DNA of 64,000 bases from Escherichia phage BEU50. The notes under the pieces are model-generated. The model ran no database searches, was not told the origin of the DNA, and saw nothing but the letters and a program-made list of their open reading frames with translations. The stretch lies in the sequence record OM632671.1; one strand, given 5' to 3'. The position numbers were made by a program, and so were the translations under genes. Positions 4,831-24,815 of this stretch are shown here, one piece after another (position 1 is the stretch's first letter; every line of letters starts with the position of its first letter).

Positions 4831-5003
4831 TTCTTGCCTAATAAAGGGAAACGCAACCTCTCCTCATGAACGTCGAGTCCTCTGAGTGATGTACCTTTTC
4901 CAACCTGTAATAAGGTCGAGCGCAATGCGGTAATGGGTTTACATAGCGAGTCGAAGGACCTAACATGTGCCACGGAATGGCCCCAACCTAAAAGAGAAAC
5001 TAA

Positions 5004-5543
5004 ATGAGAACATTTTTAACTGGACCTTATCTATCCCTGATGAATGCTTTTACACACCATTCTGATGCTAGAGTAGAAGAAATTTGTAAGAACGGTTATA
5101 TCCCACCGTTTGAAGACGTACTCAAGCAGTACTGTACACTTCGTTTAGACGGCGGCAGACAATCAGGTAAATCGACCGCAGTAACTAATTTTGCTGCTAA
5201 TTGGCTGTATGACGGTGGAACAGTTATTGTTCTTTCTAATACTTCAGCTTACGCTAAAATTTCTGCAAATAACATTAAAAAGGAATTTTCTCGTTATTCT
5301 AGCGATGATATTCGATTCCGTTTATTTACTGATTCTGTTCGTAGTTTTATTGGCAATGAAGGTTCTAAATTCCGTGGATTAACGCTTTCTCGTATTCTGT
5401 ATATAATTGACGAGCCTATTAAAGCTCCTGATATGGATAAGATTTACAATGTCCACATTAAAACAGTACAGCACTGCTGCAAAAGCAAATATTGCATCGG
5501 CGGTAATGCTCGTCCTCAATTTTTTGTGATTGGAATGCAATGA
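5004..5543 (+). CDS. hypothetical protein with P-loop-like motif (179 aa)
   Basis: GGRQSGKST motif. Confidence 0.5.
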   Translation: MRTFLTGPYLSLMNAFTHHSDARVEEICKNGYIPPFEDVLKQYCTLRLDGGRQSGKSTAVTNFAANWLYDGGTVIVLSNTSAYAKISANNIKKEFSRYSSDDIRFRLFTDSVRSFIGNEGSKFRGLTLSRILYIIDEPIKAPDMDKIYNVHIKTVQHCCKSKYCIGGNARPQFFVIGMQ

Positions 5544-5848
5544 TGACCACTATTGAAGTTTTTGAGTATTGTTATAACAGCCCAGTATGCAATAAAAGGG
5601 CTCTTGTAGAAAATTATGAGATTTACCATTTTAAACCTAAACGATATCGTTTGACTAAAGGTCCGTTCGCAGGGCAGCAGGTTCTTTGTACTGCTCCTAA
5701 TGCACGGTTGATGACTAGTATTCCGCATTTCAAAATGGAATTTATTGATGGGCCATTTAAGGGATTAATCACTCAAAGTTTAATGGCGTTTAATTCCGAC
5801 CCATTTTTGATTAAAGAAAAATCTTGGATAAATTTATTTTCTAATTGA
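5540..5848 (+). CDS. hypothetical protein (102 aa)
   Basis: ATGATGA overlap with upstream stop. Confidence 0.45.
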   Translation: MMTTIEVFEYCYNSPVCNKRALVENYEIYHFKPKRYRLTKGPFAGQQVLCTAPNARLMTSIPHFKMEFIDGPFKGLITQSLMAFNSDPFLIKEKSWINLFSN

Positions 5849-5854
5849 GGTTAT

Positions 5855-6217
5855 ATGAAAGCATATCAAATTCTTGAAGGTGCACATAAAGGCACTATTT
5901 ATTTTGAAGACAGTACTCAAGCCCGGATTATTGTCTCTAAGACTTTTAAAGAAGACGCTATTGTAGACCCGGAAATTTTCTACGGTTTGCATGCTCGTGA
6001 AATTGAAATTGAACATCAACCTAAAGTTAAAATTGAAGGTGGTCAACACCTGAACGTTAACGTTCTGCGTCGTGAAACTCTGGAAGATGCAGTTAAGCAT
6101 CCGGAAAAATATCCGCAGCTGACCATCCGTGTATCCGGATATGCAGTTCGCTTTAACTCTCTGACTCCGGAACAGCAGCGCGACGTTATCGCTCGTACCT
6201 TTACTGAGAGTCTATAA
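5855..6217 (+). CDS. autonomous glycyl radical cofactor (GrcA/YfiD-like)
   Basis: C-terminal [59 protein letters not shown] with RVSGY glycyl-radical motif. Confidence 0.85.
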
Positions 6218-6441
6218 TGGCTAAATTGATTATAGAAGGGTCTGAAGATGTTTTAAAATGTTTTGCCGCCTGGTTTAGTTGCTCAGGCGAGCAATCATTC
6301 ATTGAAGCATTTAGAATGGGTGATATTACTGGAAACTATCCGACAACTGATATCACTGTACATGGATATGGTATTAATGAGCCTATCCAATTGGTCGAAT
6401 ATGACCTTGCCACCGATGAGGAAATTCCTTATGTCGATTGA
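6217..6441 (+). CDS. hypothetical protein (74 aa)
   Basis: ORF track. Confidence 0.45.
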   Translation: MAKLIIEGSEDVLKCFAAWFSCSGEQSFIEAFRMGDITGNYPTTDITVHGYGINEPIQLVEYDLATDEEIPYVD

Positions 6442-19450: not shown

Positions 19451-19863
19451 TGAGATATAGCCTTCGTTGTTTTATTGCAGCTTTAGTTTTTGCCATCATT
19501 CCATTCATTTGGAACAGCCAGAATACTTACATGGAAACTAAAGTAATTCCTGTGGAGGTAGTGGAATTAATTTCAGGTCAATCTACAGGAAAATATTCTA
19601 AATTAGAATTTATTGCCGTCTATAAAGATGAGCAAGGACGAGTTTTTGACAGGCGTGTATCACCGTCGTTTTATACGCTTCTGAATAAAGGTGATACGAT
19701 AGCTATAGAAATTCGTGAGATGGATATCAAACAAACTACTAAAGATAACCTGATTTGGTTCTTTGGTACAGTGTTGATGTTCTCTATCGGTATCACAGGT
19801 TTTATTACATGTATTGTATTTGGTGTTGCATATTTAATCGATGAAAGGAAAAATAATGTTTAA
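19450..19863 (+). CDS. hypothetical membrane protein (137 aa)
   Basis: N- and C-terminal hydrophobic helices. Confidence 0.5.
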   Translation: MRYSLRCFIAALVFAIIPFIWNSQNTYMETKVIPVEVVELISGQSTGKYSKLEFIAVYKDEQGRVFDRRVSPSFYTLLNKGDTIAIEIREMDIKQTTKDNLIWFFGTVLMFSIGITGFITCIVFGVAYLIDERKNNV

Positions 19864-20119
19864 AGTGTACGGGTATGACTCTACTATTCACCGTTGTGTT
19901 TTCTGTGATAATGCGAAAAGATTGCTGACTGTTAAGAAACAGCCATTCGAATTCATTAATGTTATGCCAGAAAAAGGTGTGTTCGATGATGAGAAAATTG
20001 CTGAGCTTCTGGTTAAGCTTGGTCGTGAATCACAAGTCGGATTGACTATGCCTCAAGTGTTTGCTCCTGACGGAAGTCACATTGGTGGATTTGACCAACT
20101 GCGAGAATATTTTAAATGA
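19856..20119 (+). CDS. nrdC: glutaredoxin/thioredoxin NrdC
   Basis: MFKVYGYDS..CVFCDNAKRLL matches T4 NrdC; start moved to ATG 19856. Confidence 0.9.
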   Translation: MFKVYGYDSTIHRCVFCDNAKRLLTVKKQPFEFINVMPEKGVFDDEKIAELLVKLGRESQVGLTMPQVFAPDGSHIGGFDQLREYFK

Positions 20120-20790: not shown

Positions 20791-21262
20791 ATGTTATTAT
20801 CAGGCAAAATATAAAGAAGAAAAACAAAAATTTTATGATGCACAGAATGGTAAGTGTCCTATTTGCCACCGTGAATTAGACCCTGATGTTCAAGGTAACC
20901 ATCTTGACCACGACCACGAATTAAACGGGCCAAAAGCCGGTAGAGTTCGTGGATTACTCTGTAATCTGTGCAACGCAGCAGAAGGTCAAATGAAGCATAA
21001 GTTCAACCGTTCCGGTCTTAAAGGACGTGATGTTGACTACCTCGAATGGCTTGAAGCTCTTCTTGCTTATTTGAAACAAGATTATTCTTATAATAATATC
21101 CATCCTAATTTTGTTCCAGACAAAACTAAAGAGTTCTCAAGACTAGGTAAAGAGGAAATGATGGCTGAGATGCTTCAAAGAGGATTTGAATATAATGAAT
21201 CTGACACCAAAACACAGTTAATAGCTTCATTTAAGAAGCAACTTAGAAAGAGTTTAAAATGA
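20791..21262 (+). pseudogene. 49: endonuclease VII (gene 49) homologue with disrupted 5' reading frame
   Basis: ATG 20791 gives MLLSGKI then TAA at 20812; the homologous frame (YKEEKQKFYDAQNGKC...HLDHDHELNG...) runs 20807..21262 with no ATG before 20990. Confidence 0.6.
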
Positions 21263-23076
21263 CAATTGAAAAAGAAATTGAAGGATTGATTCATAAAACT
21301 AATAAAGACCTTTTAAACGAGAATGCTAATAAAGATTCTCGTGTTTTTCCAACTCAACGGGACCTTATGGCTGGTATTGTGTCTAAACACATTGCCAAAA
21401 ATATGGTCCCGTCTTTTATTATGAAAGCGCATGAAAGCGGAATTATCCATTTCCACGATATTGATTATTCCCCTGCTCTTCCATTTACTAATTGCTGTTT
21501 AGTAGATTTAAAAGGAATGCTTGAGAACGGGTTTAAGCTCGGTAATGCACAGATTGAAACTCCTAAATCAATCGGTGTTGCTACTGCAATTATGGCACAA
21601 ATTACTGCACAAGTTGCTTCACACCAGTATGGCGGAACGACTTTTGCTAATGTAGATAAAGTACTTTCTCCTTATGTTAAACGCACCTATGCAAAACATA
21701 TTGAGGATGCAGAAAAATGGCAAATCGCTGATGCGTTGAATTATGCTCAATCCAAAACAGAAAAAGATGTCTATGACGCATTCCAAGCTTATGAATATGA
21801 AGTAAACACTCTCTTTAGTTCAAACGGACAAACGCCTTTTGTAACAATTACATTTGGTACGGGAACTGACTGGACTGAACGAATGATTCAGAAAGCAATT
21901 CTGAAAAATCGTATTAAAGGTCTTGGTCGTGATGGGATAACTCCTATTTTCCCTAAGCTTGTTATGTTCATTGAAGAAGGTGTTAATCTTTATAAAGACG
22001 ATCCGAACTATGATATTAAGCAGCTTGCGTTAGAATGTGCAAGCAAAAGAATGTATCCTGACATTATTTCGGTTAAGAATAATAAAGCTATTACCGGTTC
22101 ATCTGTTCCTGTTTCTCCAATGGGTTGCCGTAGTTTCTTGAGTGTATGGAAAGATTCAACCGGTAATGAAATTCTTGATGGTCGCAATAATCTTGGTGTT
22201 GTAACATTGAATCTTCCTCGCATCGCGTTAGATTCTTATATTGGAACGCAATTTAACGAACAGAAATTTGTTGAATTATTCAATGAACGAATGGATTTAT
22301 GTTTTGAAGCTTTGATGTGTAGAATTAGTTCCTTAAAAGGAGTTAAAGCGACTGTTGCTCCTATTCTTTACCAAGAAGGTGCATTCGGGGTTCGTCTTAA
22401 ACCTGATGACGATATAATTGAGTTATTTAAAAATGGTAGAAGTTCAGTGTCCCTAGGATACATTGGTATTCACGAATTGAATATTCTTGTCGGTCGTGAT
22501 ATTGGACAAGAAATTTTAACTAAAATGAATGCTCATCTTAAACAGTGGACTGAAAGAACTGGATTTGCTTTTAGTTTATATTCGACTCCTGCTGAAAACC
22601 TTTGTTATCGCTTCTGTAAACTTGATACAGAAAAATATGGAAGTGTAAAAGATGTTACCGATAAAGGCTGGTACACTAACAGTTTCCACGTTTCAGTAGA
22701 AGAAAATATTACTCCGTTTGAAAAGATTTCTCGTGAAGCGCCATATCATTTCATTGCGACAGGTGGTCACATTTCTTATGTTGAACTTCCTGATATGAAA
22801 AATAACTTAAAGGGTCTTGAGGCCGTATGGGATTATGCTGCACAACATTTAGATTATTTTGGTGTTAATATGCCAGTAGATAAATGTTTTACATGCGGAA
22901 GTACCCATGAAATGACTCCTACTGAAAACGGATTTGTTTGTTCTATTTGTGGAGAAACTGATCCTAAAAAGATGAATACCATAAGAAGAACATGCGGCTA
23001 TCTTGGAACTCCTAGCGTTGTTCCATGGAATTTAGGTAAAATGAAAGAAATGGTAAAACGAGTAAAACATGCATAG
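21259..23076 (+). CDS. nrdD: anaerobic ribonucleoside-triphosphate reductase
   Basis: 605 aa; C-terminal Zn-ribbon cysteines and glycyl-radical motif RRTCGYLG. Confidence 0.95.
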   Translation: MTIEKEIEGLIHKTNKDLLNENANKDSRVFPTQRDLMAGIVSKHIAKNMVPSFIMKAHESGIIHFHDIDYSPALPFTNCCLVDLKGMLENGFKLGNAQIETPKSIGVATAIMAQITAQVASHQYGGTTFANVDKVLSPYVKRTYAKHIEDAEKWQIADALNYAQSKTEKDVYDAFQAYEYEVNTLFSSNGQTPFVTITFGTGTDWTERMIQKAILKNRIKGLGRDGITPIFPKLVMFIEEGVNLYKDDPNYDIKQLALECASKRMYPDIISVKNNKAITGSSVPVSPMGCRSFLSVWKDSTGNEILDGRNNLGVVTLNLPRIALDSYIGTQFNEQKFVELFNERMDLCFEALMCRISSLKGVKATVAPILYQEGAFGVRLKPDDDIIELFKNGRSSVSLGYIGIHELNILVGRDIGQEILTKMNAHLKQWTERTGFAFSLYSTPAENLCYRFCKLDTEKYGSVKDVTDKGWYTNSFHVSVEENITPFEKISREAPYHFIATGGHISYVELPDMKNNLKGLEAVWDYAAQHLDYFGVNMPVDKCFTCGSTHEMTPTENGFVCSICGETDPKKMNTIRRTCGYLGTPSVVPWNLGKMKEMVKRVKHA

Positions 23077-23088
23077 GGTTAAACACCA

Positions 23089-23721
23089 ATGAATTATGAC
23101 AGAATCTATTCAAATCTAGTTAATTCTGCTGAACACCCATCTAAGCCCCGTCAAACTAAAGCCGGGTATGAACTTCATCATATAATTCCAAGAAGCATGG
23201 GTGGTCCAGATGATTTAGACAACTTAGTATTTTTAACTTATAAGGCCCACTATACTGCTCACCATTTATTGGCTAAAATATATGGTGGAAAGATGTATGA
23301 TGCATATTGGATAATGAGTAATAGTAAGCATAGAAAAGTTACTTCTTCACAATACGCGTATGCAAAAGCTAAGAAATTTGAAAATCAGCGTGGCGCAAAA
23401 AGAAGCGATAAAACTAAGAAGCTAATGAGCATAGCTAGGTCTAAAGTAACTCTTCCTGATGATTTTGGAAAAAGGATATCTGATGGGCTAACAGGAAGAA
23501 CTTTGTCTACTAGTCATAAAGAGCATATCAAAAATAGTTCTAGAAATCGCTTTAACACCAAAACGGTTATTGGCTATTCACCAGACGGAAATACAATAGA
23601 ACTAACTGGAGCAACTGAAATAAGAAATGCAGGATTTTTTCATTCTGCTGTTTATAAATGTTGCAAAGGAATTCAATCTATTCATAAGGGATATACTTGG
23701 AAATATAAAGATGAATTATGA
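23089..23721 (+). CDS. HNH homing endonuclease
   Basis: MNYDRIY N-terminus; HHIIPRSMGGPDDLDNLVFLTYKAH motif; lies between nrdD and nrdG. Confidence 0.8.
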   Translation: MNYDRIYSNLVNSAEHPSKPRQTKAGYELHHIIPRSMGGPDDLDNLVFLTYKAHYTAHHLLAKIYGGKMYDAYWIMSNSKHRKVTSSQYAYAKAKKFENQRGAKRSDKTKKLMSIARSKVTLPDDFGKRISDGLTGRTLSTSHKEHIKNSSRNRFNTKTVIGYSPDGNTIELTGATEIRNAGFFHSAVYKCCKGIQSIHKGYTWKYKDEL

Positions 23722-24181
23722 TAGAATATACCCGTGCTGCTTTGTTAATGGTCCTGGATGCAGGGTCGTTCTCTTCGTCACTGGATGTTTGCATAAATGC
23801 GAAGGTTGTTATAATCGTAGTACTTGGAATGCTCGTAACGGACAGTTATTCACTATGAATACCGTTAAAGAACTTGCGTCCCATTTAAGCAAATCGTATA
23901 TCCAAGGCCTTACCTTAACCGGTGGTGACCCACTTTATCCACAGAACCGAGAAGAGATTTCAAATTTAGTTTCTTGGGTTAAAGCAAGATTTCCGGAGAA
24001 AGATATCTGGTTGTGGACAGGATATAAGTTTGAAGATATTAAACAGCTAGAAATGCTTAAATATGTTGATGTTATTATTGATGGGAAGTATGAGAAAAAT
24101 CTTCCGACTAAAAAGCTGTGGCGAGGATCAGATAATCAGCGACTTTGGTCAAATACCGATGGGGTGTGGAAACATGATTAA
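23711..24181 (+). CDS. nrdG: anaerobic ribonucleotide reductase activating protein (radical SAM)
   Basis: MNYDRIYPCCFVNGPGCR and CLHKCEGC (CxxxCxxC); ORF-track start 23627 is an upstream extension. Confidence 0.9.
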   Translation: MNYDRIYPCCFVNGPGCRVVLFVTGCLHKCEGCYNRSTWNARNGQLFTMNTVKELASHLSKSYIQGLTLTGGDPLYPQNREEISNLVSWVKARFPEKDIWLWTGYKFEDIKQLEMLKYVDVIIDGKYEKNLPTKKLWRGSDNQRLWSNTDGVWKHD

Positions 24182-24506: not shown

Positions 24507-24815
24507 GTGGAACACAACAAGATTGAAATTTATGGCATCCCTGAAGAAGTAGGACGTTGTCCAGGATGTTATACTGTTACAAAACTTTTAAAGGAGCTCA
24601 ATGCTCCTTATACATTTTATAAAGTCCTCACTAATAATGGTAAGATTGAATATGACCGTCCTTTAATCGTATCTCTTGCTAAACGTGCAGGATTCACTTC
24701 ACTTAATATTCGTTATCCTGTCATATTTTTAAATGATAAGAAACAAAAGAATATTGCAGAGTTTAAAAAGTCCTTGATTTCATTAGGATATGACTCTGAT
24801 ATCATAGAAGATTGA
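24507..24815 (+). CDS. nrdH: glutaredoxin-like NrdH
   Basis: CPGC redox motif; GTG start; adjacent to nrdG. Confidence 0.75.
   Translation: MEHNKIEIYGIPEEVGRCPGCYTVTKLLKELNAPYTFYKVLTNNGKIEYDRPLIVSLAKRAGFTSLNIRYPVIFLNDKKQKNIAEFKKSLISLGYDSDIIED

Follow-up and report, generated by a model that had tools for sequence, protein, structure and literature searches.

The gene vs.6 of Escherichia phage BEU50 is a mosaic of a phage-type head and a host-like tail, the latter nearly identical in nucleotide sequence to the corresponding part of E. coli grcA. By sequence comparison, the tail was donated by Escherichia grcA in a transfer that is recent on the scale of enterobacterial divergence. The window analyzed here is a stretch of 64,000 nt (record OM632671.1), and all genes described below lie on its + strand. 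The gene vs.6, its family and the in vitro mechanism of the T4 ortholog are already known and widely annotated: many of the approximately 790 near-identical phage records already bear a GrcA annotation, and the orthologs of T4 and PhAPEC2 carry the name GrcA in RefSeq. The quantitative picture of the host-identical 3' block, with a hint of ongoing conversion, is the sole mildly new element. The nucleotide mosaic was not mentioned in full-text literature searches or in the T4 reviews examined.

The vs.6 coding sequence (5855–6217) runs from ATG to TAA and encodes 120 amino acids; direct reading of the sequence places a GAGG Shine-Dalgarno motif (5847–5850) 4 nt 5' of the start codon. Over its 363 nt the gene matches Escherichia phage a20 at 100% identity and other Mosigvirus members at 98–99%, with 98% for vs.6 of RB69, and the source DNA is an RB69-like Mosigvirus. 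The first-pass annotation, made from the letters alone, had proposed a GrcA/YfiD-like protein, and this assignment was confirmed by matches of the product to Pfam Gly_radical (PF01228; E = 2.2e-18, 67.2 bits with a cutoff of 22.2, residues 59–101) and to the NMR structure of E. coli YfiD (PDB 6OWR; E = 1.4e-42) as well as by 63% whole-length identity to E. coli GrcA in BLASTP. The product also matched the C-terminus of PflB (residues 696–759) with E = 3e-26, and alignments to GrcA and PflB identified Gly95 (codon GGA, 6137–6139) as the predicted glycyl-radical site of the RVSGY motif, aligned with GrcA Gly102 and PflB Gly734. PHROG 1209 covers Vs.6 over its full length (7.7e-63). With TIGR04365, the NCBIfam equivalog model for GrcA, Vs.6 scored 159.5 bits and thus just below the curated cutoff of 170 (E. 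coli GrcA: 233.9 bits), because the first 17 residues and the head are divergent. Vs.6 is best described as a phage branch of the GrcA family and not as a strict GrcA equivalog. It is a small stand-alone protein of approximately 14 kDa without a catalytic barrel, and the genes on either side, vs.7 and vs.5, are unrelated to it.

We are confident that the reading frame is the Mosigvirus ortholog of T4 vs.6 and encodes an autonomous glycyl radical cofactor; the T4 protein is also called Y06I, which we take to be the UniProt-style name of the T4 reading frame. T4 Vs.6 likewise consists of 120 amino acids, 112 of which (93%) are identical to BEU50; in the denV-regB block its gene is flanked by vs.7 and vs.5, as in BEU50, and it has the same mosaic structure, with a head of phage type and a tail of E. 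coli type. Seven of the eight substitutions are located in the head, and the eighth is histidine 73 in T4 in place of the arginine found in BEU50 and E. coli. T4 gave one vs.6-type match per record and hence contains a single gene of this type. In total, 1,514 phage records, among them those of T5-like phages, contained a homolog of vs.6. The reading frame is intact and has the same junction of head and tail in about 750 T-even phage genomes, and the independent origin of these genomes excludes an assembly chimera or chance as the source of the GrcA-like tail.

The phage-type head comprises codons 1–59 (5855–6031) and has a GC content of 0.35 and a GC3 of 0.22. It is distantly homologous to GrcA residues 1–66, with about 62% nucleotide identity, about 30% amino acid identity and a deletion of 6–7 residues relative to E. 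coli, and the entire BEU50 protein is 7 residues shorter than GrcA. Both proteins combine a variable N-terminal half with a radical domain and share the head motif ARxIV(A/S)K...F.ED.(V/I)V, whereas the AT-rich head sequence itself is phage-specific and vs.6 is expressed from a phage gene block and not from the host grcA locus. Among phages, the head shares 88.7% of its nucleotides with T4 and 74% with Klebsiella phage KP179, and the dN/dS ratio between T4 and BEU50 (0.055/0.455 = 0.12) reveals purifying selection. The host-like block (6033–6217) consists of codons 60/61–120 and the stop codon, contains the glycyl-radical domain and is nearly identical to E. coli grcA. Identity falls sharply 5' of 6033, to about 50–60%, and similarity ends at the vs.6 stop codon. 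The last 183 nt (6035–6217) are 97.3–97.8% identical to grcA in each of the 5,426 complete E. coli genomes, and the mismatches to the common E. coli allele are confined to four positions (6139, 6208, 6211 and 6214). On the protein level, the near-identity of the last 60 residues including RVSGY to the E. coli protein, noted in the first-pass annotation, turned out to be complete, with 60 of 60 residues matching GrcA 68–127. The GC3 of the tail (0.41) is close to that of the E. coli grcA tail (0.43), and the tail was the only E. coli-like segment when positions 1–25000 were compared with all E. coli genomes by megablast. The second-best megablast match of the tail after grcA was pflB with approximately 80% nucleotide identity, compared to 97–98% for grcA, and therefore grcA and not pflB was the donor. 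The radical-glycine codon ends in A (position 6139) in BEU50 and a20, which is a private synonymous change among the sampled copies, since E. coli, T4, RB69, T2 and the other copies have a T there.

The high identity had originally been ascribed to host acquisition or strong constraint, and in fact both apply, the protein being nearly invariant and the nucleotide sequence being 97–98% identical to E. coli grcA. The tail protein hardly varies across Enterobacterales and Pasteurellaceae, and amino acid identity alone is therefore no proof of acquisition. At the nucleotide level, however, the grcA tails of Citrobacter (92%), K. pneumoniae (88%), Salmonella (84%) and Yersinia (84%) are clearly distinct from E. 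coli despite only 0–2 amino acid differences. Between E. coli and Salmonella, dS in the grcA tail is about 1, and across 80 species not one of the 57 interior third positions is invariant. In a neighbor-joining tree of the tail, BEU50, RB69, T4 and a Tequatrovirus isolated on Yersinia grouped with E. coli and Escherichia sp. with 99.7% bootstrap support, so that the alignment with host grcA that had been suggested as a check nested the phage sequences within Escherichia. Selection on the RNA or DNA itself, acting through codon choice, the structure of the mRNA or a regulatory element embedded in the sequence, could in principle produce nucleotide identity without recent ancestry, and the high expression and codon bias of grcA and the host-like GC3 retained in the phage tail would fit such an explanation. 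We nevertheless regard it as highly improbable, given that host grcA genes encoding the same or nearly the same tail vary at synonymous sites to the extent described above, that identity is only 73–85% for the homologs of Klebsiella phages, Krischvirus and T5-like phages and that an Rfam search with the entire 64-kb stretch returned no match. The Yersinia-isolated phage in the tree, vB_YepM_ZN18 (Tequatrovirus, from Yersinia pseudotuberculosis; extracted locus 301–663), has a tail with 96% identity to E. coli and 83% identity to Yersinia grcA, which suggests that its evolutionary host is E. coli.

The synonymous divergence between T4 and BEU50 differs strongly along this region. In the neighboring genes, which are much more diverged than vs.6, dS was 0.7–1.8 in the six genes in which it was measurable and saturated in two more, while it was 0.455 in the head and 0.094 in the tail of vs.6. 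The tail dS between the two phages is about equal to the distance of each phage to E. coli grcA (0.045–0.09). Four synonymous differences between T4 and BEU50 were observed in the tail, where at least 21 were expected from the neighboring genes (P < 6e-8), and therefore an old acquisition with later drift is ruled out. This pattern implies recent or recurrent host-to-phage exchange of the vs.6 tail. When the interior 171 nt of the E. coli allele (corresponding to 6034–6204) were used as query, 373 phage records were at least 99% identical and a further 269 were 95–99% identical. T2 and several other phages were 100% identical to the E. coli allele over these 171 nt, and such copies occurred in both genera, Tequatrovirus and Mosigvirus. 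Polymorphism was compared between 95 host contigs from metagenomes and 14 phage copies; IMG/VR yielded only 5 further loci, and most contigs from the metagenome scan were of host origin (101 host, 7 phage). Six of the nine common third-position polymorphisms of E. coli were also variable in phages, mostly with the same allele, which has a hypergeometric probability of about 8e-4 when each of the 57 sites is taken to vary with equal freedom and of about 0.1 when only about 25 of them are. A multi-site host haplotype was not found in the 14 phage copies in the comparison with the 95 host contigs. Fixed phage-specific differences are located at the edges of the block, at 6029–6032 and at 6208–6214, the latter tracking the phage genus, and this placement is expected if conversion tracts fall inside the block.

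We tentatively propose that, in T-even phages infecting E. coli, homologous gene conversion keeps replacing the 3' half of vs.6 with chromosomal sequence of the infected cell, a reading to which we assign a little less than an even chance. Constraint on the protein would keep the block of approximately 180 nt similar enough to recombine, and recombination would in turn erase phage-specific drift; the head follows the phage phylogeny, and the tail was acquired or re-copied recently from the host chromosome, most probably by this route. Recurrent conversion would account for the 171-nt blocks that match a host allele exactly in hundreds of lytic phages, for the tail dS of 0.09 next to neighboring genes with values near 1 and for the occurrence of host polymorphisms in phages. 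Alternatively, a single very recent capture in one T-even lineage may have been followed by spread from phage to phage in Tequatrovirus and Mosigvirus without any ongoing exchange with the host, which we consider a serious rival, somewhat less likely than recurrent conversion. A single event would readily explain that all phage copies have the same 5' edge (AAAA at 6029–6032), that 13 of the 14 sampled copies have a T at 6211 and that the multi-site host haplotype was not seen in phages, and the head dS of 0.455, lower than the 0.7–1.8 of the neighboring genes, would fit a transfer of the entire gene from one lineage to another. However, RB69 was reported to be unable to recombine with T4 (PMC6024577), which speaks against a transfer involving RB69-type phages, and since the two genera share only 49% identity in the vs.5 flank, any crossover would need to lie inside the tail. 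Furthermore, phage variants coincide with polymorphic sites of E. coli above expectation under the equal-freedom model given above, and copies fully identical to the major E. coli allele are present in both genera. Taken together, these observations lead us to favor recurrent host-templated conversion, with due reservation, over a single capture with subsequent spread among phages. If correct, recurrent conversion would constitute a natural and measurable case of routine DNA flow from the host to virulent phages, and the mosaic of head and tail offers a compact natural system of approximately 180 nt for gauging recombination between virulent phages and the host chromosome.

GrcA-like genes with an MKAYQ(I/N)L... 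head and a ...RVSGYAVRF tail, similar to vs.6, are also present in Klebsiella Jiaodavirus, Slopekvirus, Pseudotevenvirus, Krischvirus and T5-like Demerecviridae. In contrast to vs.6, their tails are only 73–88% identical to any sampled host grcA, so that such a close match to the allele of a living host is confined to the T-even group of E. coli. Homologs in T5-like phages and Krischvirus that infect E. coli have 73–74% identity to E. coli grcA, so infection of E. coli is not sufficient for homogenization. For the tail of Klebsiella phage KP179, the best match was K. pneumoniae grcA (91% over 173 nt), but this pairing had a bootstrap value of only 17%, and we therefore refrain from postulating another independent recent capture in Klebsiella phages. 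In Klebsiella phage CPRSA (OM971648.1), the vs.6 homolog is frameshifted (365 nt, extracted locus 301–665) and annotated as two coding sequences, which represents either a pseudogene or a sequencing error. Two PLSDB entries labelled as plasmids, CP125156.1 (K. pneumoniae, 5.37 Mb, 'plasmid unnamed2') and LR134122.1 (K. aerogenes NCTC10006 'plasmid 2'), contain grcA, adjoined by srmB in the latter, and are evidently chromosomal sequence.

The function proposed in the first-pass annotation, rescue of oxygen-damaged host pyruvate formate-lyase (PFL), has been established in vitro for the T4 ortholog Y06I, the radical domain of which differs from that of BEU50 only by R73H. According to PMC8683613, which refers to Wagner et al. 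(2001), YfiD and T4 Y06I are spare parts of approximately 14 kDa on which the PFL activase installs a glycyl radical, and which bind PFL after cleavage by O2 and make it active again. They are the only two validated PFL spare parts (PMC8683613), and the YfiD (GrcA) mechanism is repeated from the same source, Wagner et al. (2001), in a 2026 review (PMC13450708). The disordered residues 1–60 of YfiD promote cPFL binding and radical installation (PMC8683613). For BEU50 Vs.6, we infer the same mechanism because 60 of 60 residues of its radical domain agree with E. coli GrcA and the steps were demonstrated in vitro for Y06I and YfiD. Cleavage of host PFL by O2 at the radical glycine Gly734 would deprive the enzyme of its C-terminal radical domain. 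The host radical-SAM activase PflA would recognize residues 61–120 of Vs.6 and abstract a hydrogen atom from Gly95 in RVSG95Y, and Vs.6 would then dock in the damaged PFL in place of the lost domain and restore the conversion of pyruvate to acetyl-CoA and formate. The part replaced by Vs.6 or GrcA is the glycyl-radical domain of PflB (residues 696–759) or TdcE, which has a homologous fold and the RVSGY motif; Vs.6 differs from PflB in being a stand-alone protein of the size given above, in addition to the lower nucleotide identity already mentioned. T-even phages shut off host transcription and degrade the host DNA, and consequently no new host GrcA is made. Phage-encoded Vs.6 would thus let fermentation go on providing energy and acetyl-CoA to infected cells in the micro-oxic gut. 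For an infection phenotype of vs.6, for a vs.6 phage mutant or for experiments with the BEU50 protein, the full-text literature searches and the T4 reviews examined yielded nothing.

As the Vs.6 head shares only about 30% of its residues with YfiD's N-terminal half, affinity or partner choice could differ from the host protein, and the phage head may tune affinity or timing. One could also envisage that Vs.6 acts as a decoy or modulator that titrates PflA, redirects PFL or provides a spare radical domain for NrdD, without repairing PFL in vivo. The presence of NrdD/NrdG as a second glycyl-radical system on the same stretch would be compatible with such a role, and so would the strong divergence of the N-terminal half, which serves cPFL binding in YfiD and yet is conserved among phages. 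This role is improbable, however, considering that the T4 ortholog restores PFL activity in vitro (PMC8683613), that the radical domain matches GrcA at every residue and has its closest similarity to PflB (E = 3e-26), and that beyond the glycine motif (IRxxGY) little is common to the C-terminus of NrdD (...IRRTCGYLG...). Even less credit can be given to the view that vs.6 is a functionless passenger, i.e. host DNA repeatedly picked up via residual homology. The tail is indeed host DNA, and the copy in phage CPRSA is frameshifted, but about 750 T-even genomes contain an intact reading frame, the dN/dS of the head is 0.12, and the position of the gene is conserved across Straboviridae genera, with homologs in Demerecviridae. 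Rescue of PFL is the reading that we retain for BEU50 Vs.6, by analogy to Y06I. Vs.6 would then represent a phage-supplied repair part for a host fermentation enzyme, with relevance to the physiology of phage therapy, and its diverged but conserved head could help to define the part played by YfiD's disordered N-terminus.

The genes flanking vs.6 are vs.8 (5004–5543) and vs.7 (5540–5848) on the 5' side and vs.5 (6217–6441) on the 3' side, all of them open reading frames. Vs.8 and Vs.7 were identified by tblastn with 97–99% identity to PhAPEC2 Vs.8 and Vs.7, both with unknown function in PHROG, and Vs.5 is 94.6% identical to PhAPEC2 Vs.5. The genes are tightly spaced, with a 4-nt overlap between vs.8 and vs.7, a 6-nt gap between vs.7 and vs.6 and a 1-nt overlap between vs.6 and vs.5, where the ATG of vs.5 uses the last A of the vs.6 TAA; vs.8, vs.7, vs.6 and vs.5 are probably co-transcribed. 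The gene order e, denV, vs.8, vs.7, vs.6, vs.5, (vs.4), regB, vs.1, vs, tk is common to BEU50, RB69, PhAPEC2 and T4. Sigma-70-like sites were not enriched (8 found, 8.7 expected) and included no convincing promoter for vs.8–vs.5, and neither the T4 late motif (TATAAATA) nor a MotA box was detected on the + strand between 4000 and 7000. The spacer 5' of vs.8 (4831–5003, 173 nt) is free of open reading frames and has a GC content of 0.44–0.47, compared to a mean of 0.37 for the stretch; its predicted folding was worse than that of shuffled sequence (z = +1.98), and it had no Rfam match. PhAPEC2 contains an IpIII-like gene near the equivalent position. At the other end, the divergence between T4 and BEU50 rises from approximately 2% to approximately 50% exactly at the vs.6 stop codon, and vs.5 (75 codons in BEU50, 59 in T4, at 5382–5558 of the T4 locus) is almost unalignable between the two phages at 49% nucleotide identity.

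Together with nrdD, nrdG, nrdH and nrdC, vs.6 had been viewed as part of a support set for anaerobic metabolism. All four nrd genes are indeed present on the same stretch, but they form separate blocks 14–19 kb downstream of vs.6, with dozens of unrelated genes in between, and do not constitute one unit with it. The tie between the nrd genes and vs.6 is thematic, namely life without oxygen, and not structural. Open reading frames and tblastn identified nrdC (19856–20116; Pfam Glutaredoxin was among the matches of the nrd block), nrdD (21259–23076; Pfam NRDD, 1e-171), nrdG (23711–24181; Pfam Fer4_12/Radical_SAM) and nrdH (24507–24815). NrdG is the activase of NrdD. BEU50 thus encodes two glycyl-radical proteins, NrdD and Vs.6, and a phage-encoded activase only for NrdD, so that Vs.6 must rely on host PflA, for which Y06I provides a precedent. 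Vs.6 as a spare part for NrdD was rejected on the basis of the sequences, which have little in common at the C-terminus apart from the glycine motif. Between nrdD and nrdG, and overlapping the start of nrdG, lies an open reading frame for an HNH endonuclease of 210 amino acids (23089–23721; Pfam HNH, 5.7e-6) that is absent in PhAPEC2, where nrdG abuts nrdD. NrdG is 79% identical to PhAPEC2, compared to 96–97% for nrdD, gp49 and nrdC, and these sequences suggest that a homing endonuclease gene was inserted here and its flank co-converted.
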